NCBI GenBank assembly: GCA_050010755.1
Contig: JBEKKK010000004.1
Coordinates: 1 to 64,000 of the forward strand
Length of the DNA: 64,000 bases
Source of the DNA: Candidatus Bathyarchaeia archaeon
GTDB taxonomy: Archaea; Thermoproteota; Bathyarchaeia; Bathyarchaeales; Bathycorpusculaceae
Direction of reading: 5' to 3'
Shown here: in pieces, positions 8,545 through 63,865 of the stretch
Layout: every line of letters starts with the position of its first letter
Numbering within the stretch: position 1 is the stretch's first letter
Made by a program: the position numbers and the translations under genes
The notes under the pieces: generated by a model
The model's database searches: none
What the model was told of the DNA's origin: nothing
The model's input: only the letters and a program-made list of their open reading frames with translations

Positions 8545-8766
8545 ACAAATATGAAAACCACTAGCACTCGCTAAATTTAGGCTTCGTTAAGTTTGAGCTC
8601 GAGTTGTACAATCTTTTTCTGCCGCCATAAGAAGTGCCAACAAGACAGTTCTTACACCGTTCTCAGCCAAATGTCCCATAAATTATTGCCATTTCTAATT
8701 TATTACGTTAGGCATATCATTTCTTCTCAAGCCCGCACTATAGTCAGCGCGCGCCTTGGCATTATC

Positions 8767-9024
8767 CTATTTCTCCTTCTCCCATGTTCCGTCAGAAAGA
8801 ATATCTTTTAAGTTATCAGGCTCTTCCTCTAACTTGCTAGATTGCTTGCTGGATTCCTCTTCTTTTTCTTCTTCTTCCTCATTATATTCGTATGGTTGTG
8901 TTTCTTTTAGCTTGTCAAGAGTGATTTGATATTTTTTGTATATTTCACATGTTTGCGTCAGCAACTTTGCAAATGGACAAACGTCGCATGAAGCGACATC
9001 TGGAGGAGCATACGCACATTTCAT
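8767..9024 (-). CDS. Small Cys-containing protein with acidic tract
   Basis: 85 aa, four Cys in the N-terminal part (including CDVC), EEEEEKEEE tract; GGTGA upstream. Confidence 0.6.
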   Translation of the reverse strand: MKCAYAPPDVASCDVCPFAKLLTQTCEIYKKYQITLDKLKETQPYEYNEEEEEKEEESSKQSSKLEEEPDNLKDILSDGTWEKEK

Positions 9025-9158
9025 TCTTATTTCACCTTCTGTTCAAGCAAAATTGTAATTCTAGCCACGATTAAGACCATGGCACTCACTGTTTCTCTTG
9101 CGACACATAGGGTTTAAAACACTTTCTCGAAGGTTTAGGCTGCTAGGCTCAGCGCGAG

Positions 9159-9476
9159 CTATTTACTGGAACGTTCTTGGCCGTACTCATGTATTGCCTT
9201 CTGGAGCAGATCTTTAACGCTTTGACCTGTATCGGCGGTTGAACTGGGTTGTGTTGGATTCTTCTTTTCAAGAATATATTGTTCCGCGCGGTCCCGCAGT
9301 TGTGGAAAATCATCAAGCATAGACTTCAAGACGTCCCAACGGATTTCAGCTGAACCCGCTGTATTGTCTCGCAATATACACTTCATCCCAATAGTAATAG
9401 GCCAACCCTGAAATTTAAGCATTATGTACACTTGTAGTACAATCAAAGGAAAAAGATACAGTTCATGCAAGAACAA
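9159..9476 (-). CDS. Hypothetical protein (start probably at internal MKCILRD)
   Basis: Open frame with globular-like composition in the C-terminal 75 aa. Confidence 0.5.
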   Translation of the reverse strand: MFLHELYLFPLIVLQVYIMLKFQGWPITIGMKCILRDNTAGSAEIRWDVLKSMLDDFPQLRDRAEQYILEKKNPTQPSSTADTGQSVKDLLQKAIHEYGQERSSK

Positions 9477-9590
9477 TCACCTAGCGCGCGCAAACACTTT
9501 TCGATATTCCGTTTTTTGATATGTGTCGAAAATCGAAAGAACTGCTTCATTACGATTTACGATATAGGACACTGAAGAGTGCAGGACCTT

Positions 9591-9743
9591 ATGGGTATGA
9601 GGAAAAAGAAAAACGTTAAACTTCTAAATATTTATCCTTACGATCGCCTGAAGTTTGACTGGGAAGTCAACAGGCGAGTCCAACAGAAACTACTTGACAA
9701 GAAACTCATGCAATGGCGCTCCCTAATATCTAACTGCAGATAA
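9591..9743 (+). CDS. Small basic hypothetical protein (50 aa)
   Basis: Hand-translated: MGMRKKKNVKLLNIYPYDRLKFDWEVNRRVQQKLLDKKLMQWRSLISNCR; AGGA upstream. Confidence 0.4.
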   Translation: MGMRKKKNVKLLNIYPYDRLKFDWEVNRRVQQKLLDKKLMQWRSLISNCR

Positions 9744-10016
9744 TCTCGATTACTGTAAACCCTGAAAACTAATCGCTGATTACGTCTTTGTTCACCGGTC
9801 ATAGCATTTGAAGTTTAGGGCATTTTTTTCCTATTTCAAAAGTTGCTCAATCTGGGAATATTCGAGCCTTACCTTTGAATCTGGTGCGCTCGTATATCAT
9901 AAACTTGTGAGGGTTTTCTTTTCCCTCGACCCAGTTTCGGTCTCGATGCCCCCGTGAACAGAAAAATATAACTCCATTTGGGAACTATTCTAGTTTGACT
10001 TCATGGTGGTTGTGAC

Positions 10017-11267
10017 TTGAGAATAGGTTTCTTCGTATGGGAGTATCCGCCGAGGCTCGTGGGCGGCTTAGGAACATACGCTCAATACATAACGCGCGAG
10101 TACGTCCAGCTTGGACACGATGTCACGGTGTTCACGCTCAATCAGGGTGACTTGAAAACAGCTGAGGTTATAGATGGAGTGGATGTTCAACGACCTTTGA
10201 TTGCAGATGCAAGTAACATTTTTCCAGTTTTTGTGGTGGACGATTTGAAAAGGTGGGGGACGAACATCCGATTTTTTAACGACATATTTATCTACAACAT
10301 TTTAAGTTCTTCGAAGTTTCTTAACGAGCTGGTTAGGAAAGACGGCTATCACTTCGACGTGGTATGCGTTCACGACTGGTTAAGCTGCATCTCCGGATTG
10401 ATAACAAAGAACGAGACGAAAATACCCGTGGTATTTCATGTTCACAGTACCGAGTGGGGCAGGAGCGGTGGACATGGCTCCGAGGTTGTCACGCACCTTG
10501 AGGAGCAAACGGCTCAGAATGCGGATAGAATAGTAACGGTTAGCAACGCGATGCAGGACGATTTGACGAGACACGGCTGGCCTCAGTCAAAGATAAGCGT
10601 AGTCTGGAACGGCGTGGACCCTGCCCAGTATGATCCGAACCTGTGCAAGAGCGAAGATGTCGACGAGTTCAGACAAGAGGCAGGAATCCCGCCGGACTGG
10701 AACATGGTTCTCTTTCTTGGGAGGCTGACATGGGTGAAAAGCGTCAAAAACCTTGTTCAAGCGATGCCTATGGTCTTGAAGGAGTTTCCAAAGACGAAAT
10801 TGGTGATTCTGGGCAAGGGTGAAGAACAGAGCGACATCATCGAAACCGCTGACAGACTTGGAATCAAGGACAATATCGTCTACAGGTTCGACTTCGTTCC
10901 AGAGGATGAGAGGAAATTGTACTATGTTGCATCAGATTTGTGCGTGTTCCCCTCCGTCTACGAACCGTTCGGCATAGTGAGCTTGGAAGCGATGTCTATG
11001 GCAAAGCCAGTCGTCGTCGGTGCGCGAGGAGTTGTTGGCTTCCGAGAGCAAGTCATCAGCTCAGGCCCAGATCAAAACGGAGTCCACGTCAACGGAGAAG
11101 ACCCCGCCGACATAGCCTGGGGAATCAATGAAGCGCTAAGAGACCCGAAAAGAGCAAAACTCTGGGGCCAAAACGGCCGAAAACGAGTGCTGAACTATTT
11201 CACCTGGAAAAAAGTCGCCGAACAGACGCTTGACGTGTATAGCGCGCTGGGTCAGAAAGGAAACTAG
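10017..11267 (+). CDS. GT4-family glycosyltransferase (glycogen synthase-like)
   Basis: WEYPPRLVGGLG, HDW, HSTE, PSVYEPFGIVSLEAM. Confidence 0.92.
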   Translation: MRIGFFVWEYPPRLVGGLGTYAQYITREYVQLGHDVTVFTLNQGDLKTAEVIDGVDVQRPLIADASNIFPVFVVDDLKRWGTNIRFFNDIFIYNILSSSKFLNELVRKDGYHFDVVCVHDWLSCISGLITKNETKIPVVFHVHSTEWGRSGGHGSEVVTHLEEQTAQNADRIVTVSNAMQDDLTRHGWPQSKISVVWNGVDPAQYDPNLCKSEDVDEFRQEAGIPPDWNMVLFLGRLTWVKSVKNLVQAMPMVLKEFPKTKLVILGKGEEQSDIIETADRLGIKDNIVYRFDFVPEDERKLYYVASDLCVFPSVYEPFGIVSLEAMSMAKPVVVGARGVVGFREQVISSGPDQNGVHVNGEDPADIAWGINEALRDPKRAKLWGQNGRKRVLNYFTWKKVAEQTLDVYSALGQKGN

Positions 11268-11298
11268 AAAGACCGCGTCTTGGACCAATTTAGTTTCA

Positions 11299-11898
11299 CT
11301 AATAATACCGTTCGCTCTTCCAGACGTCTGCCGAATCACTGAATCCCCTTTTCTCCCAGTAGCCCATTTCCTTCTTCTCAGTGAATCTTATTCGCGTCAC
11401 CCATAAAGCGCTCTTGTACGCGTATTTGCCAGGAACGACAAGTCGTAGGGGGAATCCATAGCCTTCTTCCAAGGTTTTTCCGTCAAGCTTCATCGCCAAA
11501 AGTATGTCGTCGCCTGAAAGCTCGGGAAGTGAAAGCGACGTCGTGTAGCCATCCGCGCATTCAAAGGTAGCAAACCTCGCGCTTTCTTTAGGCTTAGCCA
11601 AACTAGCTAAGCCTCCGAATCGGATGCCCTCCCATTCACAGTTGAGAACGCTCCATCCTTCAACACAGTGAAAATCACTAGTAGACCGGACGGTCGGGAG
11701 TTCAGCAATTTCTTTCCAGCTGAGCTTTAATGGTTTTTCAACTTCACCATCTACGGTTAGGGTGTACGTGTTCAGGTCGATCTTAGGGTTGGCTCGTGCA
11801 ATGCCAGGGTGATCTATGCCCCATCTTAGGAGCTTCTTGATTGGAGCTTGACCTGGCGGCAGATTGTTGCGATGATTTTCCTTTCCTTGTGAAGCCAT
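11299..11898 (-). CDS. Molybdopterin-binding oxidoreductase (sulfite oxidase-like catalytic domain)
   Basis: LPPGQ, DFHCVEGWS (Mo-ligand Cys), GFPLRLVVPGKYAYKSALW, GYWE. Confidence 0.9.
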   Translation of the reverse strand: MASQGKENHRNNLPPGQAPIKKLLRWGIDHPGIARANPKIDLNTYTLTVDGEVEKPLKLSWKEIAELPTVRSTSDFHCVEGWSVLNCEWEGIRFGGLASLAKPKESARFATFECADGYTTSLSLPELSGDDILLAMKLDGKTLEEGYGFPLRLVVPGKYAYKSALWVTRIRFTEKKEMGYWEKRGFSDSADVWKSERYY

Positions 11899-11965
11899 GC
11901 TTGTTCAAGCTAAAATGAGTTTGCGTTGAAAATAAAAAGGTGTTGCATCACCGACAAACGCGGCG

Positions 11966-13075
11966 TCAGTCTTTGTTTTCGTTGATGAAGCTTGTGAGCT
12001 GTGTTTGATTCTTCTCTTGCCTGACAAAGCTCGCGACTTTTACTCCTACTCTGCGGGCCTCAAAGTCGGTCTGATCGAGAAATCTCTCAAGCAACTCCTT
12101 CACAGCTTCTTTAAATGCTTCAAGATTGTCCGTGGGGTTTTCGAATGTTTTTGATCTCGTGTGGATGCTCATGTCCGTTGCGATTACGATTATTCCAACG
12201 GTCTTGAATGCAAGTCCGTCTTTTGCGATTGTGGCGTGAATTTCGCCGCACAACTGGTCCGTTCTTTCCACTATGAAGCTTAGCTCTCGGGAGTCGTGTT
12301 TCAGGGTGGCGATTCTGCTGATTGATGTGGCTTCTCCCCTCTCTTCAACAGGCTCATCGTCGATTCCAAGGGAGGCATTATGGAAATAAGTCGCCAGGGT
12401 CTTGCCAAAAAAGGCTATAAGCTTTTGCATGTCATAGCTTGACAAATCAAAAATCGTGTTGATTCCCAGCACTTGCATTCGCTCTCTGGTCTTTGCTCCA
12501 ACACCGATGAGTCGGCTCACGGGCAGAGGCCCTAGAAAGACCGTCACTTGGTCAGGCGTGACAACCGTTAGACCGTCGGGTTTTTTTGTATCGGCCGAGA
12601 TTTTTGCGACGAGTTTGTTGGGTGCCACCCCAATTGAACACGTGAGTCTCTCTTGTCGTAGCACTTCGCTCCTTACCCTTTCAGCCAGCTTTCGCCCCTC
12701 TTCAAAGCTTCCCCCTGTCTTTTGAGTAACGTCGAGATACGCTTCGTCTATGCCGACCTGTTCAAAATGGTCCGCTAAGCTCTTCAGGATGTTCATGACT
12801 TTCCCAGAAATCTCTTCGTAAAACTCGTAGTCAACAGGCAGGAACACTGCATTCGTATTCTCCAGTTTTTTCTTGGCAAGGAAAATAGGTATTCCTGACT
12901 TCACTCCGTACGCCCTTGCGACATAATTTGCCGTGCTTACAGCTCCACTGTCTTCGGTCCGTCCAGAATAAACGCAGACCACAACAGGCTTGTCTCGAAT
13001 GGAGGGATTTCTGAGCTCCTCGCACTGGGCAAAGAAATAGTCCAAATCAACAAGCATGACCACCCTTGACTGCAA
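11966..13075 (-). CDS. dbh: Y-family DNA polymerase IV, Dpo4/Dbh type
   Basis: VDLDYFFAQCEE, CVYSGRTEDSGAVSTANYVAR, GIDEAYLD, KPDG; PIP-like QTQLTSF at C-terminus. Confidence 0.95.
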   Translation of the reverse strand: MQSRVVMLVDLDYFFAQCEELRNPSIRDKPVVVCVYSGRTEDSGAVSTANYVARAYGVKSGIPIFLAKKKLENTNAVFLPVDYEFYEEISGKVMNILKSLADHFEQVGIDEAYLDVTQKTGGSFEEGRKLAERVRSEVLRQERLTCSIGVAPNKLVAKISADTKKPDGLTVVTPDQVTVFLGPLPVSRLIGVGAKTRERMQVLGINTIFDLSSYDMQKLIAFFGKTLATYFHNASLGIDDEPVEERGEATSISRIATLKHDSRELSFIVERTDQLCGEIHATIAKDGLAFKTVGIIVIATDMSIHTRSKTFENPTDNLEAFKEAVKELLERFLDQTDFEARRVGVKVASFVRQEKNQTQLTSFINENKD

Positions 13076-13298
13076 AGGCCGGGCTCCTCCACTTGAAAAT
13101 TCTTCCTACACATTTACGTCTTCTGCTGTGCGAAATATGCAAACTAGACAGGTCGTCGCTTACGCTTTCGAAAAAAACGGCCTTGGCTTTGGCCTCCAAT
13201 AATTGCCTCCCCTTCGATTCAGGTCTTTGAACCTTTCGACAATCCATTAATGAAGAAAAAACTGTTCTTTCGATGCGCATGCCCAAATTCGCGTGCTT

Positions 13299-13691
13299 TT
13301 AAGTCGCTGTTACCCGTACAGCTAGTCTTTCTCCGTTGCGATTGTAGGCTGCGACGTTTTTTTCATCGGCAAACGGAGATCCTACAATCATGAGTATGGG
13401 CCCATAAAAGTGGTTCAGATCGGTGCTGGATGGGTTTATGTTTCCTGATGGGTGAGAATGTGCTGTTCCCACAATGGAGAAGTCCATTGGCAGCATACTG
13501 ATCGGAAGGTTGGCAAAGCCTCGTCCGTATTTGGCAAGCGGAGGAACGAGGAGGTCCGTCACCGTGATCACATCTTTTTCCTTTTTGCCGCGAAGCACTA
13601 GAATGGTTTCTCTAGGATAAAGGTGCTTGGCGCCCTCGAAAATAGTCTGCAGCAACTCCTGACAGATAGAGATCGTGCTACATTTTGGCAT
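13299..13691 (-). CDS. JAMM/MPN+ (Mov34) metalloprotease
   Basis: YPRET plus HSHPSGNINPSSTD (HxHx7Sx2D). Confidence 0.9.
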   Translation of the reverse strand: MPKCSTISICQELLQTIFEGAKHLYPRETILVLRGKKEKDVITVTDLLVPPLAKYGRGFANLPISMLPMDFSIVGTAHSHPSGNINPSSTDLNHFYGPILMIVGSPFADEKNVAAYNRNGERLAVRVTAT

Positions 13692-13947
13692 AAAGCCTTT
13701 GAAGCTTTCCCGTACTTAAGTGCATTTCGAAACGTTGGCATCGAGACGAAATCAGATCCTCTTTTGCCCTTCTCGGTTGCTCGTTATTCCTCAATCTCAA
13801 AAAGTGTGGCTTCAAAGTCGGATTAGAAACATGTTTTCAATTTTTGAATTCTATGATCCGCGCTCCGCCTTTTTTTTCTCAATAATCAATCCAGAACACT
13901 AAAATAATCAAAATCTTTCTGTACAACAAAAGCAGAGGAAAAGAGGA

Positions 13948-14619
13948 CTGGGAAAAATAAGAATAGCGTCTTTTGATTTGGATGGAACTCTCACAGACAT
14001 TTCATTCGTGGATTGCGTGTGGTTGGAGGGAATTCCTCGATCTTATGCTCTCAAGCATGGTCTTGCTTTTGAGGATGCCAAGGACTTCGTGACGCGTGAG
14101 TATGGCAAAGTCGGCAGGGAGAGGCTCGAGTGGTATGATCTGAGCTATTGGATTCGGAAATTTGGTTTGGACGTTTCTCCTAGAACGATTTTGGATTTTT
14201 TCAAACAAAGAATAAGAATTTTCCCTGAAGTGATTGAAGTGTTAAACGAGCTTAAGTGCATGGGATTAAGGCTGATAATAGTAACAAATGCCCGCCGGGA
14301 ATTCGCCGATTTGGAGATTGAAAACACAAAGATTGGGCCTTATTTTGAGCAGATTTTTTCTGTAACCTCCGATTTTGGGCTAATAAAGAAAACTCCTGAC
14401 ATTTACAAAAAGGTGTGCGGCATCTGCAAGATTACGCCGAGGGAAATGATTCACGTGGGTGACGATGAGCGTTTCGATTTTGAAGTTCCTAGAGAGATCG
14501 GCATTGAGGCCTTTTACCTCGACAGAACTGGTAAACATTCAGGGCAGTCCGTAATTCACAGTTTAATGGAGCTGAGCCAAAAGCTGACGACTGTGACTCA
14601 CTTGAGTGAGCATAAATGA
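13948..14619 (+). CDS. HAD-superfamily hydrolase, probable CTG start
   Basis: Motif I FDLDGTL starts upstream of the track's start at 13978; VTN, HVGD..FD motifs present. Confidence 0.88.
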   Translation: MGKIRIASFDLDGTLTDISFVDCVWLEGIPRSYALKHGLAFEDAKDFVTREYGKVGRERLEWYDLSYWIRKFGLDVSPRTILDFFKQRIRIFPEVIEVLNELKCMGLRLIIVTNARREFADLEIENTKIGPYFEQIFSVTSDFGLIKKTPDIYKKVCGICKITPREMIHVGDDERFDFEVPREIGIEAFYLDRTGKHSGQSVIHSLMELSQKLTTVTHLSEHK

Positions 14620-14699
14620 TAGTCTCTAAGGCTTGAATACGCTGGAATCAAAACGCAATTAAGTGCAGTCTGGTTTTTCCTTCTTGGAAGGTTTACACG

Positions 14700-15521: not shown

Positions 15522-15568
15522 TAGGTGTTTTGCGCTGAATCGACGGGGGAAAACCGATTTCTCTGAGT

Positions 15569-16111: not shown

Positions 16112-16131
16112 TTTTCAGTTTTCCTCAGGAG

Positions 16132-17752: not shown

Positions 17753-18253
17753 ATGCTTGCAGGCGGTAATATGCGGATAGGAGATACCCCGTTGTTCGAC
17801 AAGATATTGGTTCCCTTAGATGGGTCTGAACATTCTTGGAAAGCGCTGGAAGAGGCGGCTTTGATAGCGAAAAAATTCTCTGGGAAACTAACGCTGATGC
17901 ACGTCTATTCCGTGCAACCTGTCATAATGCCAGAACCATCTACAGGGGGTTCCTTAAGCATTCCGATCATAACGGGCGCAGAGGTTTCCGCTATGATTGA
18001 AGCCGCGATGAAGCTTGGAAACAAAATTCTGACCGACGGAGAACAAAGAATCATGGCCTCGGGGGTTGAAGTCGAAAAAGTACTTGTGGAAGGGCATGCT
18101 GTTGAAGAAATCGTCGGGTTGGCGAACCAAGGCAATTTTGACCTGATCGTGATAGGCGCTCGGGGTGTGAGCCACATGAGAGAACTGCTATTGGGAAGCG
18201 TAACCGACGGAGTGATACACCACGTGCGCTGTCCAGTATTAGTGGTGAAATAA
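17753..18253 (+). CDS. Universal stress protein
   Basis: KILVPLDGS, DLIVIGARG, LLGSVT, CPVLVVK. Confidence 0.93.
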   Translation: MLAGGNMRIGDTPLFDKILVPLDGSEHSWKALEEAALIAKKFSGKLTLMHVYSVQPVIMPEPSTGGSLSIPIITGAEVSAMIEAAMKLGNKILTDGEQRIMASGVEVEKVLVEGHAVEEIVGLANQGNFDLIVIGARGVSHMRELLLGSVTDGVIHHVRCPVLVVK

Positions 18254-18315
18254 GTCTTCTTGCTGCGTTGTGAGCATCTTTAGGCTTATTTGTTTCGAAG
18301 AAGACACTGCAAGAG

Positions 18316-19380
18316 TAGCGCGCGCTGAACAGTTGAAACCAGAGGATAAAGTCAATTGGAACGTGAATAACATGACTCTTTCCTTTAGATTACAAATCAA
18401 GGAAAAAATCAAACAGAAACTTAACGAACTCTAAGATTTATGAGTCAGCGCGTGCGCTAACACATAACCCTTATCAGCCTCACAGTTCAACTAGACTTGG
18501 ATGCTGATGCGAAACCGAGGGTCTCGGTACAACCATTTTGCCGAAACTGGTAACAGTGCAAACAGCAGTCAACAAGAACGCCACCTAATTAGAGACCATC
18601 TGCGTGGCAAGTTCACAACCCGACGAATTTTGGTCGTCGTCTTGGTCATTGCCCTCATTGTCATGACAATAATAGCTTACTTAGTCTACACTAATACGAG
18701 GAACACGTCTCCAAGTTCAATAGATGGGATAGTTATTGAGTCGGGCTACACTGCGGTAGTGGGCAACAAGACCGTTTCAGATGGGAGACTATCCATCACG
18801 GTTAACAATTATCATTTTGAAGAAGCAGAGGATATTGATTGGTTTCCCAGTCTTCCTGTTACTCCAACAGCGGTCTTTATGTTCGTTAATGTTACCGTAG
18901 CGAACGTAGGTTCAGGCAACGCCTCCGTCTCTCCAGCGTGGGTCTTCATGCAGAATGGCAGTTCAATAATCGGAAACACTAATTTTGTGTGGAACGTTTC
19001 CTTTCCCGTGGGAGTGTTTCCAAGCCAAGCGTACCCTGACAACAGCGGCGGCGGAATTTACCTGCCCCCAGGAAAAGAAGTGACATTCTGGTATCTGTTC
19101 TACGTTCCGTACTCTGAGTCTCTGGGACTGAGCGGAGTAGCCCCAAAAATGACCCTCAAGGCCTTAGTTTATTACGAACTCTTGTATGGAGGTAACTACG
19201 AAGGCGATGGTGCATACAGTGGTTCAGCTAAGGACTTAAAAGTTCAGTTCATCGTCCTATATTAGGTGTTAAGAGAGAGAGCGTTCGCCTAAAAGTCTAT
19301 TCACCGGCGTGCGCTAACATCATGTTTTTCTTCTTCATCCATGCATGATTAAACATTCTTGCCTCTTTCTCAGCGCGCCT
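18316..19380. repeat. Second cluster of TAGC-GCGC-GCTA-like palindromes (18316, 18446, 19279, 19305, 19371)
   Basis: TAGCGCGCGCTG, CAGCGCGTGCGCTAA, GAGCGTTCGCCT, CGGCGTGCGCTA, CAGCGCGCCT. Confidence 0.6.
18501..19265 (+). CDS. Membrane-anchored surface protein with Ig-like (DUF4352-like) domain
   Basis: Single N-terminal TM, FMFVNVTVANVGS and LPPGKEVTFWYLFYVP pattern, several sequons. Confidence 0.7.
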   Translation: MLMRNRGSRYNHFAETGNSANSSQQERHLIRDHLRGKFTTRRILVVVLVIALIVMTIIAYLVYTNTRNTSPSSIDGIVIESGYTAVVGNKTVSDGRLSITVNNYHFEEAEDIDWFPSLPVTPTAVFMFVNVTVANVGSGNASVSPAWVFMQNGSSIIGNTNFVWNVSFPVGVFPSQAYPDNSGGGIYLPPGKEVTFWYLFYVPYSESLGLSGVAPKMTLKALVYYELLYGGNYEGDGAYSGSAKDLKVQFIVLY

Positions 19381-19432
19381 CATCAAGTGAACTTATATCG
19401 AAGATTGAACCACTCACAAAAGAGGATGAAAT

Positions 19433-19651
19433 ATGATGCCTTCAACAATTCAAGAAAAGGAAAAAAGGATACTTTCGGAGCTAAAGAAGCAAAATGTTCG
19501 AGTTAGTCATTCTTTAGTTAAGATCGACGCGAAGACAAGGGCATGGGAACATAGGATAGGCAATTTCGAAGATACAACAAAAGAAGATATTGACAAACTA
19601 TGGGAAATAGTTTCTAAGCACTTTAAAGAATGGTTAGAAAGCATTTCCTAA
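19433..19651 (+). CDS. Small hypothetical protein
   Basis: 72 aa, GAGGA upstream, AT-rich. Confidence 0.55.
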   Translation: MMPSTIQEKEKRILSELKKQNVRVSHSLVKIDAKTRAWEHRIGNFEDTTKEDIDKLWEIVSKHFKEWLESIS

Positions 19652-19945
19652 AACTTTATCACGCGACTGTTAACACGAACCCGAACCAAGGGCGTTTCTG
19701 TCACCCGAAAATTAACAGCGTTCCCCATCGCCTATGAAGTTACCAGAATCGCCTACCACAACAGACTTAACAGTATCCTGCAAGAGTGAACTTTATCTAC
19801 TCCTTGACCCGGCGGTTCGAAACACCAACATGGTCTCAGCAGAGTATCGGCGGGCCTGTTTGTCAACGTGCTAGTCCAGTATCCTTCTGGAAAACCTTTT
19901 AACGCAATAGAGGGCAAACTATTTCTTCGTTTTAAGATGAGGGGG

Positions 19946-27848: not shown

Positions 27849-28206
27849 GGGATCCACTCCGATAACGTATCTTCCTCTGCAACACTTATGCTTATTTGAC
27901 TTTACGAGGAGGCTTCGGTGTATGCGTTTAACTTTATCAACGATTTCCAATGAGGCGTGCATGGGTGATTTGAATTCTGTTGATTGACGGGAGAGGGCTA
28001 ATGTGTGTGCTGACGGCCCCTCCCCCTGGTATACGATATGATCCAAATATGATTTAGGAGAAAAACGTACTAGCTGCCCACCGGTTCTCTCAATCCGGCC
28101 AGCGCGGTTTGGAAACAGGTTTGCGCGCTCGTATGGGATTATGTTAAGTCTTATATTATTGACTGTTAGAATAGGAGTGTGCCTCGCTTGTTGGAACGTG
28201 TGTTTG

Positions 28207-29541
28207 ATGAGAAAGACTATATTCAAGAAGCTTGAGGCTCAGGGGCTGATTGCGAATTACAATCATCTTAGGAAGAACCTGCCTCCTAAGCTTCCTGACA
28301 GAGTTTTTATTTGGGATGAAACCCTGAGGGAAGGAGTTCTGTCCCCGGCTGTTTTTCTAACCTACGTCGAAAAAGTCAAGCTTGCCAAGATGATGGACGA
28401 GACGGGTGTAAGCATAATAACGGTTGGTTTTCCCGCACTGTCAGATGAAGAGAAGAGCACGGTTAAGAAAATTGCAAATGAGGGGTTTCAGCAGGCCAGC
28501 CTTGCCGCCTCAGCACGCATCTTGAAAAGCGACATAGATATCTGCCTTGAATGCGGCATACGAGAGATTCCGATTTTCACGGCGTTCAACGGACTGAACC
28601 TAACGCACAGACTGAAAATGACCAAGGAACAGGTACTGAAAAGAACCGTTGAGTGTATTGAGTACGCAAAAAAACACGGTGTGAAGGTGGACTTTGTCCT
28701 GGAAGATGGTTCAAGAACGCCCTTGCCAGAGATTCTACAGATTTTCGAGGCGGCGGCGAAAGCCGGAGCAGACCGACTAGTCTTGGCGGACTCAGTGGGG
28801 TTCCTGAGGCCGCTGTCAATGCGTTATCTCATTTCACACGTTAGAGACGGTTTATCGGAGTCGCTCAAAAAAACCGTTCCTTTATCGGTTCACTGTCACA
28901 ATGACTTCGGCTTGGCAACGGCGAATAGTCTCGCTGCTGTCGAAGAGGGCGTGGCCTACGTTCACACATGCGTTGCCGGGTACGGTGAAAGGGCAGGATG
29001 CTCGCCGTTGGAAGAGGTTTGCACTGCCCTAGAACTGCTCTACGACGTGGACACCGGCGTGGATCTCGACAAACTGTACAGGCTCTCGCAACTTGCCGAG
29101 AAGGCTTTCGCCCTGCCCATCCAGTTTCACAAGCCGCTAATAGGAGAGAACGCTTTTGCATACGAGGAAGACGAATACGTCAAGGATGTTCTTGCGGACC
29201 CTATGACGATTGAACCGTTTCCGCCGGAAATCATCGGCAGAGAGACCCTGTTTTACCTCGGCAGACAAGCTGGCAGAACCCTAGTTGCGAACCGGTTGGC
29301 ACAAGCAGAAATCAAGGCGACACCCATGCAGATAGAAGAAATCGTTAGAAGGATCAGGGGAGCGCACGAAAGCTTGGACAAGGGCGAAGCCCAGATGACC
29401 TTCTACCAGATAAAGAAGCTCACGAAGGACCTCAGAAAAGGCTTGACAGAAGAAGAATTTTGGAAAATAGTTGAACAGGTAACGAGACAGAAGCCCAAGC
29501 TTCCACAAGAAACGAAAACCGCACCTTCCAAAACTGTCTAG
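28207..29541 (+). CDS. DRE-TIM acyl-CoA condensing enzyme homolog (homocitrate/isopropylmalate/citramalate synthase family), atypical motifs
   Basis: WDETLREG, LADSVG, HCHNDFGLATAN, GYGERAG. Confidence 0.85.
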   Translation: MRKTIFKKLEAQGLIANYNHLRKNLPPKLPDRVFIWDETLREGVLSPAVFLTYVEKVKLAKMMDETGVSIITVGFPALSDEEKSTVKKIANEGFQQASLAASARILKSDIDICLECGIREIPIFTAFNGLNLTHRLKMTKEQVLKRTVECIEYAKKHGVKVDFVLEDGSRTPLPEILQIFEAAAKAGADRLVLADSVGFLRPLSMRYLISHVRDGLSESLKKTVPLSVHCHNDFGLATANSLAAVEEGVAYVHTCVAGYGERAGCSPLEEVCTALELLYDVDTGVDLDKLYRLSQLAEKAFALPIQFHKPLIGENAFAYEEDEYVKDVLADPMTIEPFPPEIIGRETLFYLGRQAGRTLVANRLAQAEIKATPMQIEEIVRRIRGAHESLDKGEAQMTFYQIKKLTKDLRKGLTEEEFWKIVEQVTRQKPKLPQETKTAPSKTV

Positions 29542-52645: not shown

Positions 52646-53067
52646 AAACAAGAAACAGCCAGAAGCTGTTGCTCTTCTTTATTTCTGTTCTCACCTTTCC
52701 AAGGCGAACAAACTGTCTAAACCATTTACGGCAAGTTGGCCAACCTTCGCGCGTAGACCCAAAAAAGAAGTGATCAAAAAACTTGCCGCCCAGTCATAAC
52801 CGGAAAATGTAAGAAGAAATGTGGAACGAACCAAGCGCGAAAAAATCCGCCCTTGACGCGCGCCATAGTTTGGCCGGCCAAAAGCCGAAAACGTTAAGAA
52901 ACTTTACCAAAGCAAAAATCCGGCAGAAAAGCAGCAGAAGAGGAGTCTAAACTTGTCAAGAATCAACCCCCAGCATACGTCTTCATATATGGACTAGGTG
53001 CTAGCGCAAGAGATAAAAACAAGCTAAAGTTTTGTTACCGAGGGTTCTTTTCTGAAAGAAACCTTGT

Positions 53068-56018: not shown

Positions 56019-56062
56019 AGTAATCGCCTAATCCATAGGTCATTCGTTCGTCGCTTGGACAT

Positions 56063-56599: not shown

Positions 56600-56701
56600 T
56601 GTTCTTTATGATTCTATATAACATTTTTCAGCCTTCTTTGAGTAGAAATGTTTTAAATACTCAAAATCAAGATAACTGCAGATGCATCCAAGGGGAAGAG
56701 T

Positions 56702-58230: not shown

Positions 58231-58356
58231 TATCGCTCAAGCGACATTCTGGTTGCTCGACTTATTAGTTCTTTTGACCGGATAAAAATGGATGTTGAGC
58301 TGCATACCGATTGAGAACAGAATAGTTGGAATCCAAGGGTGCGCTCCATATAGTAG

Positions 58357-58429
58357 TAGCCCGGGAGAGATTCGAACTCTCGTCAGCGGCTCCAGAGGCC
58401 GCCATGTTTGACCACTGCACCACCGGGCT
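58357..58429 (-). tRNA. tRNA-Gln(CTG)
   Basis: AGCCCGG/CCGGGCT acceptor, GCGGC-CTCTGGA-GCCGC anticodon arm, GAGAG-TTCGAAT-CTCTC. Confidence 0.95.
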
Positions 58430-58499
58430 CTGTTCAATGAAATAGAGACTGGTCTTTCTTTATAATAACTTTAACGTTGGGAGTCGAAGGAATGACCCG

Positions 58500-58706
58500 T
58501 TATTTTCTTTTCATTGTCGCATCGCTGATGCAGTTGCATTCTTGAGCACTCGGGTAGTAGTCTTCGCAGCATGAGAGTGTCTGAACTATTGGATCTTTGT
58601 TCTTCAAGAATCGTCTCGTGCAGAATATTTGATCTGGATAGTTGTAGGCGTTATGACTAGTGCAGTTTCCGCAGACCTTACGCTTGTTCGAAGCTTTATT
58701 GTTCAT
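58500..58706 (-). CDS. Small Cys-rich protein
   Basis: CGNC, FC, CC, CNC; overlaps the end of the DHS gene. Confidence 0.6.
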   Translation of the reverse strand: MNNKASNKRKVCGNCTSHNAYNYPDQIFCTRRFLKNKDPIVQTLSCCEDYYPSAQECNCISDATMKRK

Positions 58707-59727
58707 TCAGATCCTCCTGTTTGAACATTTCATTTCTTGCCCTTGGCGGTCTCTTGAAACCTTCACCGAGCCGTTCAATCACAGAGGCTACCATCGTGGG
58801 AAAAACCATCATGGCTTCGCCTATCACCATGGTCTTGTCTGATTCGCTCTTCAGTTTTCCCCAGCTTACCGTTTCTTCGAGTGTGGATCCGGACAGTCCT
58901 CCGGTTTCTGGTCGATCCATGGTTATCACGACGGCATAATCGATGCCTGATTTTGTTGCAAGTGCAGCGGATTGTATGGTGTTCCTCGGAACTCCGCCTC
59001 CTATAATCACCATGCCGTTTCTTGGAGATTTCTTGCACACATTGATTATCTCGGGCACATCTTTGAAAGCGTCGACCATTATCGTGTTCTTGAAGTGTTT
59101 CCGGGTGGCGTGAAGGTTATAGATATAGCCAAATTCGGAATCGCGCACGGCTGGGATGAAGATTGGCGCTTTGGCTTCGTACGCAGCGCGCAAAATTGAA
59201 TTCGGGTCTTTGAGTCTTCTGCCTAGTTCCCAAGCGAACTCTCTTGAGGACAAACTTTTTCCTCCGTATTCGGCCGCAATGGCGTCGTACATTTCCACGA
59301 GGTTCATGTCCAGCCTTATGAAGTCCTCCTCGGGCACGAAAACGTCGTAAATTCGGTAAGTGTGGTTCCTGTAGAGCAAATAGTCGTCAACGTTCCAATG
59401 ACCCTTATAATGATGACCACCCAACGCCTCAACCGTATCGTGAACCATGTTCGCGCCAGTTGTCACCAACACGTCGATGAGGTTTTCCCGTATCATATCC
59501 GCAATCAATGTTCGCATCCCAGCAGGGACTACAGCCCCAGCCAAGCCCAAAAAAACCGTGCATTTCTTGTCACGCACCATCCGCTCATAAATGTCACACG
59601 CAGCAGCGAGTCTTCCGGCCCCGAATGATCCTGAATTCTTGAACTGCTTGACAAGCTGGTCAACGGTGAGCGTCCCATTAATTTTCACGTGCTTCACTGG
59701 TTCTCGGAGTATCTCCTTCCTCTGCAT
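58696..59727 (-). CDS. dys: Deoxyhypusine synthase
   Basis: LVTTGANMVHD, RIYDV, PAVRDS, GGGVPRN, GGLSGSTLEETVSWGK. Confidence 0.93.
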   Translation of the reverse strand: MQRKEILREPVKHVKINGTLTVDQLVKQFKNSGSFGAGRLAAACDIYERMVRDKKCTVFLGLAGAVVPAGMRTLIADMIRENLIDVLVTTGANMVHDTVEALGGHHYKGHWNVDDYLLYRNHTYRIYDVFVPEEDFIRLDMNLVEMYDAIAAEYGGKSLSSREFAWELGRRLKDPNSILRAAYEAKAPIFIPAVRDSEFGYIYNLHATRKHFKNTIMVDAFKDVPEIINVCKKSPRNGMVIIGGGVPRNTIQSAALATKSGIDYAVVITMDRPETGGLSGSTLEETVSWGKLKSESDKTMVIGEAMMVFPTMVASVIERLGEGFKRPPRARNEMFKQEDLNEQ

Positions 59728-59844
59728 CAGAATACACGCTCAGAAACCAACTGTTTAGTCGATTAAGCACAAATATCTTTCCGTACTTTTTCCGAAACTA
59801 GAAGGTCAGGTTATTAAACTTCTGATCTTTTGCAATTCGAGTTT

Positions 59845-60078
59845 TCACAGCAACGCGAAATCAGCTGACTTGATTCTTCCTCTCGAGTCCAGAGTAACTT
59901 CGAATTTCTCAGCCCAAGGATGCCCCTCCAAGTCTATAGGGCACGTTCCCCGAACGATCCAGATTTCCTGTTTCTGCTCAACCGTAGAAACCTCGACCCT
60001 ATCAGTGAACTTCCTCTTCTTGAGAAGCTCAACCGTTATCTGCTCCGCTGCTTCCTTCGTAATGACATTATCCTTCAT
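59845..60078 (-). CDS. Small hypothetical protein (PepSY-like pattern)
   Basis: ITKEAAEQI, WIVRG, FEVTLDSRGRIKS. Confidence 0.6.
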   Translation of the reverse strand: MKDNVITKEAAEQITVELLKKRKFTDRVEVSTVEQKQEIWIVRGTCPIDLEGHPWAEKFEVTLDSRGRIKSADFALL

Positions 60079-60241
60079 TGCGGTTCCTCGGGCAAGGCAA
60101 ATCGCCTTACTGTTCCTTTTGGAAGCATTAAAGGTTGTGAATGTAAAATCTTTAATCTGGATACATAGCAATCTCACGCTACACGATTACTGTCATGCCT
60201 ACTAGATAGATTCAAATCGAACAGGTGTCGTTGGTAACTCA

Positions 60242-61345
60242 ATGGTATTTCAACCGGAGAAGGCACCAATTAGCGAAAGGAGAAGAATAATATTCCATTT
60301 TGACATGGACCATTTTTTCACTGCTATCGAGGAGAGAGAACATCCTGAACTCAAAGGCAAGCCAGTAATTGTTGGAGCTGATCCGAAGGGAGGAACTGGA
60401 AGGGGAGTCGTTAGCACCTCTAATTATCTAGCTAGGGAGTTCGGTGTCAGGTCAGGCATGCCTATCTCAAGAGCCTGGAAACTGTGTCCAAACGCGGTCT
60501 ACATGCCTGTCAACTACAAGCTCTACTCGGAAGTCTCAAGTAGAATCATGGACATACTTCGAAGGCACGCGGACAAGTTTGAACAATGGGGCATCGATGA
60601 AGCCTTTCTGGACGTTACGGCAAAAGTCAACGACTACGTCTCCGCGAAGGCTCTCGCCATGCACATAAAGCACGGAATCTACAGACAGGAAAAATTGACG
60701 TCCTCAGTTGGGATAGGCTCGAACAAGCTGGTAGCAAAGATAGCCAGCGACTTCCAAAAACCCGACGGCTTAACTCTAGTCAAAGAGGAAGACATCGGAA
60801 AATTCCTAGCTCCGTTGGCTGTTCGGAAACTACTCTGGGTTGGAAGAAAGACTGGACAAAAACTGGAAGACATGGGCATAAAGACTGTGGGAGATTTGGC
60901 CCATTATGACGCTCAAATGTTGACTGATGCTTTCGGCGTGATGGGAAAACAGCTTCATCTGATGGCCCTTGGAATAGATAAGAGCGAAGTCCGTGAAAGA
61001 AACTGGGTTAAATCCATAAGCCGTGAGTTTACCTTTCAAGAAGACACGGATGACCTGGACTCCATTTTGAGAAATCTTGACATGCTGGCTGAAGAAGTGA
61101 ATAAGGATGCTCTGAACCAGCGGCTTCAATTTAAGACCGTCACAGTTAAGGTTAGATACTCAAACTTCGAAACCCACACCCACAGCAAAACGCTTCCCTT
61201 CATCACAGACCGCTTAATCGACTTGGAAAGAGCAGCACGCGAGCTTCTTCAGCCATATCTTAAGCTCGAACGAAAAATCAGACTCATAGGCGTAAGAGTG
61301 TCAAGTTTAGTCTCAAGCGAAAAACAAAGAAGGCTTTTTCAATGA
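60242..61345 (+). CDS. dinB: Y-family DNA polymerase IV, second paralog (DinB type)
   Basis: HFDMDHFF, RGVVSTSNYLAR, GIDEAFLD, KIASDFQKPDGL, IRLIGV, terminal QRRLF. Confidence 0.95.
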   Translation: MVFQPEKAPISERRRIIFHFDMDHFFTAIEEREHPELKGKPVIVGADPKGGTGRGVVSTSNYLAREFGVRSGMPISRAWKLCPNAVYMPVNYKLYSEVSSRIMDILRRHADKFEQWGIDEAFLDVTAKVNDYVSAKALAMHIKHGIYRQEKLTSSVGIGSNKLVAKIASDFQKPDGLTLVKEEDIGKFLAPLAVRKLLWVGRKTGQKLEDMGIKTVGDLAHYDAQMLTDAFGVMGKQLHLMALGIDKSEVRERNWVKSISREFTFQEDTDDLDSILRNLDMLAEEVNKDALNQRLQFKTVTVKVRYSNFETHTHSKTLPFITDRLIDLERAARELLQPYLKLERKIRLIGVRVSSLVSSEKQRRLFQ

Positions 61346-61900
61346 CCCTTTTTCTGTTGCCTAGTCTCAATCCTTCCCTTGACTCTTCGAATCTCGAGAA
61401 TGGGTTATCCGCATCCGAACAGGCGCCATGAACCAAGTCTTCGTCCTGAGCCCATGGAAAAGTCGCATCGTATCTCATCGCAAACAGGTGAATTAAATAA
61501 TTGGGGCCTTCCTGCAGATGAGCGATTGTACAGTGAGTTTAGATGTCGTTATGAGTGAGTTTTGAGTCTGAACAGAGCCTGCTGGCATGTCCATTCGCAA
61601 AACACAGTCTCCATCCAACTTAGTTCTGAAAAACTTTTTTTTCTCGCATCAAAAACCGCGCCCAAACTCAATGCTTCCCTTCTGTAATCTTTTCAGCATC
61701 CTAAATCACGCGCTCTTAACTTATTTAACAAGATCTGAGCACCTGGGAAGTAAGGTTGTCGAGGCACTGTTGCAAATGTCTTCGTTGAGTGATCTTCCGT
61801 CGAACAGTATTTTGTCACCCACCTTATACCTGAAAGCGCATTTCCCCTTTTGACTCAAAATCGCTACTTCAACCACGAATAAAACAATCTTCGAGTCATT

Positions 61901-62191
61901 TCAGCTGCTGATATTGTATTTCTCCCTTATTCTTTCGTCAGCTATCTTTGCAATCATCGCATTTGAAATAAGCACGCATTTTACTCCGACCAGTTCAGCA
62001 AGCTCCGCCGGCTTTTGATCTTGGGTGACCAGCAGCATGTCATGAGCCCTTGCGTAATCAACAACAACTTTGTCACTTGCCCCCCTTAAGCCCACGTCTT
62101 GAGCTGCCTGCACGTCCCACCCCAAAGTCTCAAAGTATTCCTTCAAGCCAGCATACATCTCATCAAGCAAAAGCTTCATTGCAGTCACCAC
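61901..62191 (-). CDS. PIN-like (DUF5615/Mut7-C-like) domain protein
   Basis: MKLLLDEM, GWDV, GASD, LLVTQD. Confidence 0.8.
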   Translation of the reverse strand: MVTAMKLLLDEMYAGLKEYFETLGWDVQAAQDVGLRGASDKVVVDYARAHDMLLVTQDQKPAELAELVGVKCVLISNAMIAKIADERIREKYNISS

Positions 62192-62321
62192 ATGTGCTCT
62201 AGTCCAGGTTTCCGATATATAGACGCTTCCTCAGAAGCGCAGACCCTTGTTCCTAAATACAATTTAAAAGTTTGCAGCCTCTGCTATCGACAAATTGTCA
62301 AGTGGGCACCATTGTGCCAAA

Positions 62322-62417
62322 TGGCGGGCCCGCAGGGATTCGAACCCCGGGTGTCCGGTCTTTTCAGATCTCCGGCTCCGAAGGCCGGTGCCTTAATCCA
62401 GACTGGGCTACGGGCCC
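62322..62417 (-). tRNA. tRNA-Arg(TCG) with 17-nt intron (62353-62369) at position 45/46; CCA encoded
   Basis: GGGCCCG/CGGGCCC acceptor, CCGGC-CTTCGGA-GCCGG anticodon arm, BHB CCGG-AGA / CCGG-ACA, T-loop TTCGAAT. Confidence 0.92.
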
Positions 62418-62637
62418 CCATCCAAGAATTGTTGCGAACTAATTAAAAGGGTTCCGAAATTCCTTTTAACGATTTTCGGGGCTCCTTTGACTATTTGCGT
62501 TTTCTGAAGTGTGCCAGGTTGTCTTTCTACATTAGGAACCCGCCCCCCCCCCATCCACCATCTCGGAACGCGCGCACTGAGCAAAAATTCTTAAAACGGC
62601 AACGGGAAATCAATACAACATTCCGGAAGGATCGAGC

Positions 62638-62931
62638 ATGATAAACCTGTTAATCATCACAATTCCAGTCGTCGTCATCGCCATCGCTGTCGTGCTCTAC
62701 GTTCTGTTTCCCAAGTTCGGACTGCACTACACGTCAGAACTGACGTGCCCAAAATGTGGAAAAACCTTTGACTACAACTGGGTTCCAGGAGGATCCTTCA
62801 CCGCCCTCCGACTTGGAAGCAAGAGATACATAAGCTGTCCACACTGCCACGAATGGTCCACCTACAACATAAAGTCAACCCGAACCGGCAAAGCAGAACC
62901 CGCCAATGGGAAGCGCGCGCCATTGAAATAG
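62638..62931 (+). CDS. Small membrane-anchored zinc-ribbon protein
   Basis: N-terminal TM, CPKCG and CPHC. Confidence 0.7.
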   Translation: MINLLIITIPVVVIAIAVVLYVLFPKFGLHYTSELTCPKCGKTFDYNWVPGGSFTALRLGSKRYISCPHCHEWSTYNIKSTRTGKAEPANGKRAPLK

Positions 62932-63028
62932 CTTGTATCAACTCTTTAGGAGCCATGAGCTAGATTAAAGAGGTAACAGAACGTCTTTATATGCTAGGTA
63001 TCTAACTTTGAACTGGTGGAGATAGAAT

Positions 63029-63253
63029 ATGAGACCTGAACATTATAAGCAGAATAGACCGATGAAGAAGGACAAACTCAAAGAAAAAGGCCGGACTAGC
63101 GTACCTCAACGTCGAGTGGTTGCAGCTGCTCAAAAAGCGAAAAACATCACTTCTCCGAAATTGCGTGAGGCTTACTCCACTAAAATAGAATGGATAACGA
63201 AGCTTATTCCCAAATTGAAGGAAGAAACCGAAGCGCCGAAAGAAAAAGAATAG
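63029..63253 (+). CDS. Small basic hypothetical protein
   Basis: 74 aa, GGAGA upstream. Confidence 0.5.
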   Translation: MRPEHYKQNRPMKKDKLKEKGRTSVPQRRVVAAAQKAKNITSPKLREAYSTKIEWITKLIPKLKEETEAPKEKE

Positions 63254-63513
63254 CTCAGATAAACCTGCGCACAAACTCTGGAAGACTTGCATCGGCTGTT
63301 TCCAGCGCGCTACTTTTTCAAAGATTTCGGCTAATGGACTTGCTCATTTCTTGATATCAGAAACAACATTTTGTTTTTCCCAAGTCCTTAAATAGGAATA
63401 AAAAGGGGAAGTGTGCACGATTCTATTTTGCCTATGTGGCGACATCTCCACTCTTCCAAGAGTCCGAAAACACTTAAAAACGGTCAATAGATTTATAATA
63501 GCTAACATTACCT

Positions 63514-63588
63514 GGGCCGGTAGCTCAGCTTGGCTTGAGCGTTCGGCTGATAACCGAAAGGTCGAGAGTTCAAATCTCTCCCGGCCCA
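63514..63588 (+). tRNA. tRNA-Ile(GAT)
   Basis: GGGCCGG/CCGGCCC acceptor, TTCGG-CTGATAA-CCGAA, GAGAG-TTCAAAT-CTCTC; TTTATAA box at 63492. Confidence 0.96.
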
Positions 63589-63865
63589 CTTTTTCATTCA
63601 CTTCGATTTCCTGAAAAACATGTACGTTTCAGGTGTCGTGCAAACATAGTCCAAGACACTTTCAACAAGTTGTTTGGCCTCTTCTGCGGTCTCTGCGGCT
63701 TTAGCGCGGGCTAACGGCTTCTTTATTTCCTAAAAGCTTATTGTACAGACAAGGAAAGAATTGGAAAGAGCTGAGGGCGCTGACAGTAGGGTCTAAGTGG
63801 TATCACATAGTATAGGCGGCAAGTTTTATAAACGGAATGAAACAGAAACCATCGCAGGTGATTCT

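Follow-up and report, generated by a model that had tools for sequence, protein, structure and literature searches.

What are the short palindromes of alternating G and C that recur between small orphan genes at the start of contig JBEKKK010000004.1 of a Candidatus Bathyarchaeia archaeon (assembly GCA_050010755.1)? The window considered here is the whole stretch under analysis, 64,000 nucleotides (nt) that form the first 64 kb of this contig (C4); the genome, hereafter G000, comprises 2.19 Mb in eight contigs with 47.7% G+C. An initial annotation of the window listed 14 such sites and proposed that they delimit single-gene cassettes in an integron-like capture system. Our analysis shows that the GC tracts stand at the joints of deletions, replacements, insertions, and copied segments far above chance. 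We rate as about even the chance that they are scars or hotspots of illegitimate recombination, probably made in end joining.

The motif unit is (T)A(GC)3-5T(A), most commonly A(GC)4T (AGCGCGCGCT). Genome-wide, the 8-mer GCGCGCGC occurs 253 times, while 21 to 27 copies are expected from Markov models of orders 0 to 3. With a crude open reading frame (ORF) caller made for this analysis, 84% of the genome was called coding and 16% non-coding. Although non-coding DNA thus makes up only a small part of the genome, it holds 65 to 83% of the copies. GCGCGCGC is its most enriched 8-mer (188 copies; 3.9 expected at order 1 and 11 at order 2), and AGCGCGCGCT is found there 56 times, with 0.3 expected. 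The control palindromes GCCGGC, GGCGCC, and CCGCGG show no enrichment in non-coding DNA. Passages of a survey of prokaryotic genomes describe alternating GC patterns as generally suppressed (PMC4060949), and full-text searches of the literature returned no description of the motif.

The copies share a narrow anatomy. Tracts of 6, 7, 8, 9, 10, and 11 letters number 261, 152, 169, 66, 19, and 1, with a second peak at 8; A(GC)nT occurs 45, 69, and 3 times for n = 3, 4, and 5. Around (GC)4, the preceding letter is A in 79% of sites and the following letter T in 65%; the next letters outward are T (47%) and A (48%). In a position matrix, conservation stops two letters out on each side, so that the information lies within 10 to 12 bp. 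Tracts of even length are G-first (C-ending) in 238 cases and C-first in 20, and the letters to the left and right of a site vary independently of each other. Nearly all of the 1336 flanks are unique, the biggest sequence-sharing families having six and four members. Tracts are present in all four types of intergenic region (~1 to 1.7 per kb), are densest between convergent genes, and frequently lie 0 to 20 nt beyond a stop codon.

Several simple origins were rejected on these features. Unique flanks exclude a longer repeat or a MITE (miniature inverted-repeat transposable element) as the motif unit. A snap-back or hairpin origin fails since the two flanks of a site are complementary only to the extent of the base preference. 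General microsatellite slippage was discarded since other dinucleotide repeats are enriched only 2- to 4-fold, and mismatch repair biased toward the motif was discarded since its one-transition neighbors are themselves enriched (41 copies; 2.5 expected) rather than depleted. The initial annotation had named a fixed position relative to TATA boxes as the mark of an operator. We found no constant spacing (only 14 of 800 flanks contain a TATA-like box within 12 nt) and no peak of T runs near tracts in the flank survey; with the lack of conservation across syntenic gaps described next, this led us to reject an operator or a terminator.

To the eye of the initial annotation, the palindromes were scarce in housekeeping intergenic DNA, and this impression proved correct. 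When 421 kb of two relatives, which are ~80% identical to this genome, were compared with it, the 106 syntenic gaps of conserved length (8.5 kb) contained two tracts here and four in the relatives, none of them shared, while the 38 gaps with indels contained 25 tracts here and 41 in the relatives. Since all short intergenic gaps of the genome carry 1.2 to 1.5 tracts per kb, the tracts specifically avoid conserved gaps.

Joints could be located exactly in the sister species G002 and G004 of the same genus, since these are 91 to 96.7% identical. Over ~230 kb, an event was defined as an indel or replacement between adjacent collinear alignments; two paralogous high-scoring segment pairs (HSPs) on G002:C1 below 10 kb were removed, one adjacent HSP pair whose subject ranges overlap by 226 nt was dropped, and two contig-to-contig transitions were left uncounted. 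A strict tract (at least six alternating letters) lies within 10 nt of a joint edge in 16 of 32 events (14 of 26 in a first set and 2 of 6 in a second). In the first 26 events, the distances from tract to joint are bimodal and fall at no more than 8 nt or at 28 nt and above. By chance, at least one of four random non-coding positions would lie as close to a tract in 15% of cases, a generous value (binomial P ~5e-6). The expectation that breakpoints fall in the motif once relatives are aligned is therefore borne out.

The structure of the alleles is informative. In our reading of the alignments, the tract is present only in the short allele and exactly fills the gap in ~7 events (G004C4 33693, 46954, 78236, 124136, 142139, 154436, and the left joint of 42265), the ends of the long allele being free of tracts. 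For example, CTTCTT-A-GCGCGCGC-ACA-ATATC stands opposite 1.2 kb in the sister, and TAGCGTG-GCGC-GCGACAG stands opposite 882 bp. At G004C4 14731, 41388, and the right joint of 42265, both alleles carry the tract and homology ends there; in four events, the tract is at one end of the long allele. Overall, long alleles usually carry a tract at a single end or at none; one replaced segment is bounded by tracts on both sides, and a 4.8-kb insert in G002 lies between CGCGCGC and a degenerate GCGTGCGC. The segments of the long alleles consist of unique DNA and are not copies of one element. In three motif-bearing events, a strong ORF of the long allele runs across the joint and encodes a ChrB_C protein, an S-adenosylmethionine–dependent methyltransferase, or a double GNAT protein. 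The short allele is thus a gene-cutting deletion in which most of the gene was lost.

Letters present in neither flank are found at the joints G004C4 78236, 124136, 142139, and 154436, as well as in three clean 10- to 13-bp indels. The latter emerged when tracts were classed inside alignments (149 kb; 10 tracts lying 25 columns or fewer from an HSP end were left out). Of 48 tract positions in this ~95% identical pair, 17 are the same in both genomes, 5 vary in length, and 23 carry substitutions (mostly bare GCGCGC); the other 3 are the clean indels, which consist of A(GC)n in otherwise collinear surroundings. None of the three is at TA, and outgroups do not align there. As to events of another kind, the outgroup, i.e., G000, is empty at four tract-free events with precise ends and at one whose nearest tract lies 28 nt inside the insert, and these five are therefore ordinary insertions.

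Some neighboring observations from the sister pair may be recorded separately. The inserts G004:C4:65680-76610 and 99711-117192, G004:C30:13482-19122, and G004:C18:31915-34891 (3 to 17.5 kb) have short direct-repeat flanks and a precise empty site in the sister, and for the two on G004:C4 also in G000; they are integrative elements of an ordinary kind and make no use of the GC tract. A large part of G002:C1 between ~20 and 100 kb lacks a counterpart in the 99%-complete G004 and may be a strain-specific island: a search of G004 with G002:C1:80-100 kb found no counterpart, and one with 40-60 kb gave paralogous matches only.

Duplications inside G000 reveal the same association. Window positions 9151-9472, which comprise a small gene with its upstream region, are 90% identical to C1:457895-458219, and in each copy the homology sets in exactly at the tract. 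On C1 this tract is a perfect A(GC)4T (A-GCGCGCGC-T) directly adjacent to a stop codon, and in the window it is degenerate (site 9150 of the initial annotation); at the other end, homology stops 17 or 60 nt before the next tract. Of the genome's 488 self-matches, 74 end no more than 10 nt from a tract, compared to 21 in a shifted control. In 13 self-matches, compared to 0.2 in the control, the tract is at the same end in both copies, and the boundary is one-sided in all 13. We also observed a ~400-bp repeat family whose six members (C1:578433-578828, 898022-898410, 1361838-1362201, 1071522-1071978, and 1414264-1414707; C2:143193-143589) each start exactly at a (GC)n tract and contain an AT-rich box (GAATTAAATAATTGG...) ~10 nt from that start; the family may represent a unit that bears a promoter or a gene for a small RNA.

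The motif is unevenly distributed in the class. AGCGCGCGCT is present in 69 copies here and in 29 to 115 copies in the four congeneric species; in 26 genomes from other genera, it has 0 to 9 copies, with 0 to 6 for the reversed control. When genomes with at least 10 copies and at least three times the reversed control were called motif-rich, 26 of 301 genomes of the class qualified, including most of two other families, in a patchy pattern. This patchiness suggests a lineage-specific, transferable enzyme.

How could such tracts arise at joints? Under the reading of the tracts as joint scars or recombination hotspots, DNA breaks in this lineage would be joined through a short self-complementary GC tract, which would be either newly synthesized on the 3′ ends (on each strand an A and then GCGC...) or pre-existing and used as a universal microhomology. 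In the first version, GCGC... would be added to each 3′ end, by preference after an A, and the resulting tails would anneal to one another. Ends that carry an annealing GC tail fit the phase, the small clean indels, the de novo tracts of deletion alleles, and the fact that each strand independently starts with A and then G. In the second version, any tract could pair with any other in either orientation since the sequence is palindromic, and the joints with a shared tract together with the one-sided duplications fit an existing tract acting as priming or annealing microhomology. In both cases, scars would accumulate in non-coding DNA of fast turnover, slip in length, decay by point mutation, and be replaced, and the small orphan genes between the tracts of the window would be mosaic pieces left by repeated events and not cassettes. 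A more tentative proposal is that a dedicated, transferable joining activity of some Bathyarchaeia lineages seals breaks by writing a defined, self-complementary GC tract. If so, the most over-represented word of the genome would be the accumulated signature of a new, sequence-defined repair of double-strand breaks that also drives gene loss, segment capture, and duplication, which we regard as possible but less probable than the scar or hotspot reading itself.

A number of observations weigh against this account. Sixteen of the 32 events have no tract, including all large inserts (5.2 to 17.5 kb), most of which end in direct repeats, and among 14 insertions specific to G000, 10 are without a tract and 4 have one. 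The edges of two AT-rich, species-specific patches of the window (A and B; Table 1), in which most sites of the initial annotation lie, are not at a tract, and the empty sites of the relatives contain none. Polarity is set for three motif-bearing events only. Across the other motif-bearing joints, outgroups do not align, and therefore a newly written tract and a segment inserted into a tract with its destruction are inseparable for most events. By our own reading of the alignments, the filler in two events resembles sequence ~13 nt away, which fits ordinary templated repair. The joint analysis concerns one species pair and ~230 kb, and the gene calls are crude. Last, none of the Ku, Y1, and transposase profiles points to an enzyme behind the tracts. 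Ku (PF02735) was not found in G000, a 93% complete genome, and is present in G002, G003, and G004; it does not track the motif, being present in 6 of 26 motif-rich and 82 of 275 other genomes (88 of 301 in the class). The Ku homologs are at G002:C3:47133-47669, G003:C9:92481-93017, and G004:C16:6054-6590.

Since some joints carry a longer shared end, we came upon an insertion sequence (IS) of the IS5 family at G000 C2:77969-79057, with a 348-aa transposase (DDE_Tnp_1 + DUF772) and 27-nt inverted ends beginning GCGCGC. MITE-like pairs of 130 to 300 bp with the same GCGCGC-tipped ends are present in all four genomes sampled and are mostly flanked by TA (Table 1). The tracts might accordingly be excision footprints or tip-to-tip remnants of this element and its MITEs: joining two palindromic tips would leave (GC)3-5, and sloppy excision would also delete flanking DNA. 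Overlaps of 6, 4, and 2 letters between two 6-letter tips would yield tracts of 6, 8, and 10, of which 261, 169, and 19 are observed. The GCGCGC tip is conserved in five other genomes, and a 165-bp MITE copy has 95 to 97% identical copies at six places on five G002 contigs and seems recently active. One of the joints coincides with a MITE end; at another, a MITE stands opposite a solo tract, beyond which the DNA is unrelated. We nevertheless consider this origin unlikely. Of the 26 motif-rich genomes, 8 have the tip pattern and 7 the IS5-family transposase; among the 275 others, the numbers are 27 and 29, respectively. G089, G080, and G243 have 131, 94, and 83 motif copies without the tip pattern, while G196 and G135 have 30 and 18 tips without motif excess. 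G000 itself contains 4 tip matches compared to ~400 non-coding tracts, an excess of solo tracts over element ends of ~100 to 1, element counts being subject to the frequent loss of repeats from metagenome assemblies. Moreover, the three clean small indels are not at TA, and no clean pair of an element-occupied site and a solo tract was found among the 32 G002/G004 events. A second perfect right end lies 0.8 kb beyond the element (C2:77969-79864; locus L133:1466-3369) and encloses an ORF for a 238-aa membrane protein, which may be a passenger gene.

A comparably low probability attaches to the idea closest to the initial annotation, that the tract is the recognition or crossover site of a site-specific nuclease or recombinase exchanging segments, similar to dif modules or integron cassettes. 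A dimeric protein would suit a 10-bp palindrome whose length optimum, at n = 4, is sharp, and the patchy distribution fits a transferable gene. The joints where homology ends at a tract common to both alleles, the tract-flanked 4.8-kb insert, the replaced segment with tracts at both ends, and the duplicates that start at a tract also agree with such a site. On the other hand, the boundaries of all 13 shared-tract duplications are one-sided, long alleles often lack a tract at either end, joints lie inside ORFs, the empty sites of the window patches contain no tract, and the origin of hundreds of sites is left unexplained. Nor has a recombinase been linked to the motif: the Y1 HUH transposase (PF01797) gave no match in G000 at E ≤ 1e-5, and no search was made for a tyrosine recombinase or IntI.

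For the cassettes themselves, the outcome is mixed. The predicted empty site with one copy of the motif is seen in the ~7 short alleles with a single tract and not in the counterparts of the window patches. The spacing of about one ORF between successive copies holds descriptively at 8.7-9.5 kb and 62.5-63.7 kb. Integron-like single-gene cassettes are not supported in view of long alleles that mostly have a tract at one end or none and of duplications that are one-sided, as well as of joints that cut the ChrB_C, methyltransferase, and GNAT genes and of window patches that do not break at a tract. The suggested co-occurrence with an HUH enzyme was likewise not observed, the Y1 transposase being found in 6 of 26 motif-rich and 29 of 275 other genomes. 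The integron analogy is thus partly supported: it was right that segments join at the motif and wrong on a structured site, two-sided boundaries, and a linked recombinase. Ku, the Y1 HUH transposase, the IS5-family transposase, and its tip pattern were all dropped as correlates of motif richness, since none tracks the motif.

Still less probable, in our estimate, is that an abundant, lineage-specific DNA-binding protein (e.g., a nucleoid, boundary, or silencing protein) occupies the tract and that the link of the tract to variable DNA is secondary. Palindromy, strong sequence and length specificity, the presence of tracts in all four intergenic types, and the retention of the site at window position 28123 between species that are ~80% identical would agree with a bound protein; the absence of shared sites in 106 conserved syntenic gaps, of a constant TATA spacing, and of a T-run peak would not, and tracts exactly at deletion scars and in clean 10- to 13-bp indels would be left unexplained. 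Alternating GC is a classic former of Z-DNA. That the tracts are fragile non-B structures (Z-DNA or slipped DNA) that break by themselves and grow by slippage is nonetheless highly improbable, since, despite the length polymorphism in GC steps and the joints at tracts, the (CG)n phase is 12 times rarer (20 compared to 238), the flanks are specific, the lengths show a peak at 8 and fall away at 12, the enrichment of other alternating repeats is only 2- to 4-fold, such patterns are generally suppressed in prokaryotes according to the survey passages cited above, and patchiness among relatives with similar base composition would not be expected of a physical property.

Returning to the window, the 14 listed strings are all present where the initial annotation placed them, and they are only in part copies of one motif. 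The sites 8745, 9482, 18316, 19371, 62568, 62911, and 63303 contain a strict tract, and 9150 and 63701 are one mismatch away from AGCGCGCGCT; the remaining sites (8562, 18446, 19279, 19305, and 53303) differ by two or more. The enrichment over background that it anticipated is very strong genome-wide and is also seen in the window with up to one mismatch (6 copies compared to 1.71 ± 1.18, a value reached in 0 of 100 shuffles), while variants with up to two mismatches are at the chance level (32 compared to 25.2 ± 5.5; 12 of 100 shuffles). GCGCGC itself occurs 15 times in the window (13.4 expected; 41 of 100 shuffles reach this number). Four strict tracts had been missed, at 11242, 28123, 52857, and 59186. 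With 0.17 tracts per kb, compared to 0.31 per kb genome-wide, the window is motif-poor.

The window is collinear with the relatives G001 to G004. The counterpart of patch A is ~45 bp in four relatives, and that of patch B is ~145 bp in G002 and G004; compared to relatives ~80% identical, in which non-coding DNA is too diverged, exact breakpoints of the window are out of reach. Public metagenome data from peat add some closer comparisons. A strain ~97.6% identical (run X5) has (GC)5 where the window has (GC)4 at 18318, and the contig of this strain parts from the window at 9957, exactly where patch A ends on the right; in run X10, a less closely related genome skips window positions 8496-9953. 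Among metagenome contigs, the best locus is 88% identical in protein and thus too distant for a strain-level comparison. Two Bathyarchaeia contigs found via the glycosyltransferase contain 16 (L052) and 12 (L113) tracts, each in 21 kb; L052 is a 21-kb piece of a 2.46-Mb metagenome contig, and one of the two is from an apparently complete chromosome. The region at 62.2-63.8 kb is 1.4 to 1.6 kb long with three tracts here, compared to 8.7 to 9.4 kb with nine tracts in G004. The coordinates are collected in Table 1.

Table 1. Tracts and variable patches of the window, with MITE-like copies in related genomes. Positions without a genome prefix refer to the window.
Feature	Position	Context
Patch A, 1.4 kb, this genome only	8533..9953	Between IF-2B-family and glycosyltransferase genes; two small ORFs, three tracts
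(GC)4 tract, context CAGCGCGCGCCT	8747..8754	In patch A, 13 nt past the stop of ORF 8767-9024(-)
Degenerate tract AGCGCGAGCT (site 9150 of the initial annotation)	9151..9160	Exact left boundary of 325-bp duplication
(GC)4 tract, context TAGCGCGCGCAA	9484..9491	17 nt past right end of duplicated segment
GCGCGC in 3′ end of glycosyltransferase ORF	11242..11247	Probably background
Patch B, 1.6 kb, species-specific relative to G002 and G004	18253..19861	ORFs 18270-18434, 18501-19265, 19433-19651
Perfect A(GC)4T (TAGCGCGCGCTG), length-polymorphic	18318..18325	~65 nt inside left edge of patch B
(GC)3 tract within patch B	19373..19378	
(GC)3 tract	28123..28128	Immediately upstream of gene 28141-29541; tract at same joint in G002, none in G004
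CGCGCGC tract in variable gap	52857..52863	Segments replaced in G004 and G002; tract at G004 left joint (G004C4 129547)
GCGCGC inside ORF 58696-59727(-)	59186..59191	Probably background
CGCGCGC tract	62569..62575	In tRNA-rich variable region 62.2-63.8 kb
(GC)4 tract (AAGCGCGCGCCA)	62913..62920	3′ end of ORF 62638-62931
(GC)3 tract	63305..63310	
One-mismatch tract AGCGCGGGCT (site 63701 of the initial annotation)	63703..63712	
MITE-like copy	G004:C4:14726-14887	
MITE-like copy	G002:C1:177426-177607	
MITE-like copy	G002:C1:126236-126367	
MITE-like copy	G003:C2:255989-256171	
MITE-like copy	G003:C2:99002-99302	

Other features of the window are as follows. A gene for a RuBisCO large-chain homolog (408 aa, form III-like) is arranged tail to tail with the IF-2B-family gene at 6322-8544, as expected of the gene pair for the archaeal adenosine monophosphate salvage pathway. 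An Rfam scan of the window detected four tRNAs only; these four genes lie in the variable region 53-63.6 kb, and one match of 93 nt (62325-62417, minus strand) probably bears an intron. With the form III-like RuBisCO, the probable intron-bearing tRNA, and TATA-like boxes, the window looks archaeal. Non-coding DNA is also enriched genome-wide in a second family of words, around GCAACATTACATC (e.g., G000 C4:73797-74114, also L007:6650-6842); ACATTACA has 54 non-coding copies compared to 4 expected. The family is part of a dispersed repeat of ~190 bp that has copies on at least six G002 contigs.

A word that is normally avoided in prokaryotes is thus the most enriched non-coding word of this genome and is located at points of gene-content change. 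If the tracts are written during repair, they would represent a new archaeal end-joining chemistry and a readable record of deletion and capture in an uncultured lineage; if they are targets, they would be a new minimal recombination site. Either way, they would explain the mosaics of small orphan ORFs and gene stubs in these genomes and could serve as a simple marker for rearrangement joints in metagenome-assembled genomes, and their patchy distribution makes the responsible gene findable by phyletic profiling.

Of the known systems, end joining offers fillers in the form of the N-nucleotides of terminal deoxynucleotidyl transferase, the templated insertions of the polymerase-theta type, and the products of bacterial Ku/LigD joining. 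The tracts resemble such fillers in that letters absent from both flanks stand exactly at deletion joints and that two fillers look copied from ~13 nt away. They differ in having a single defined sequence that is self-complementary, is preferred at one length and next to certain flanking letters, and ranks as the top non-coding word; moreover, unlike in Ku-dependent joining, no Ku was found in this genome, nor does Ku follow the motif across the class. The attC site of integrons, which IntI recombines on both sides, is a structured imperfect inverted repeat of 57 to 141 bp whose inner and outer boxes are conserved. Small ORFs between sites, one duplicated unit that consists of a small gene and a 3′ tract, and some empty alleles with one copy recall integrons; the site here is far shorter, with unique flanks, one-sided boundaries, and joints inside genes.

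Cut-and-paste transposons that target TA (Tc1/mariner, IS630) leave excision footprints, and solo ends of IS elements or MITEs persist as remnants. The genus has a matching IS5-family element with GCGCGC tips and TA-flanked MITEs, but element and motif are distributed differently over the 301 genomes, and solo tracts outnumber the ends ~100:1. DNA uptake sequences and uptake signal sequences (DUS/USS) are kept at the same places in relatives and are common in core DNA. The motif is similar to them as a lineage-specific 10- to 12-mer in great excess and dissimilar in that none of 106 conserved gaps shares a tract. Repetitive extragenic palindromes (REPs) and the BIMEs associated with RAYT transposases are, like the tracts, extragenic and lineage-specific; both number in the hundreds, lie close to the ends of genes, and reach their highest density where genes converge. 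REPs are imperfect hairpin palindromes of 20 to 40 bp with a GTAG or CGTC tag (PMC3733652). The tract has 10 to 12 bp and no tag, and the Y1 transposase (RAYT) was not found in this genome.

The GC clusters of yeast mitochondria are reported to recombine preferentially with each other (Dieckmann and Gandy, 1987, as cited in PMC4478555). They are hairpin units of ~30 to 50 nt with a family sequence and an AG target (PMC4478555), unlike the tract of 8 to 12 nt, which has no conserved flank and cannot fold alone. They are also palindromic, GC-rich, and intergenic, sporadic between strains, of fast turnover, linked to recombination, and spread by an unknown mechanism (PMC4478555), and in these respects the tracts are like them: GC palindromes in intergenic DNA that are sporadic, turn over fast, and are linked to recombination.

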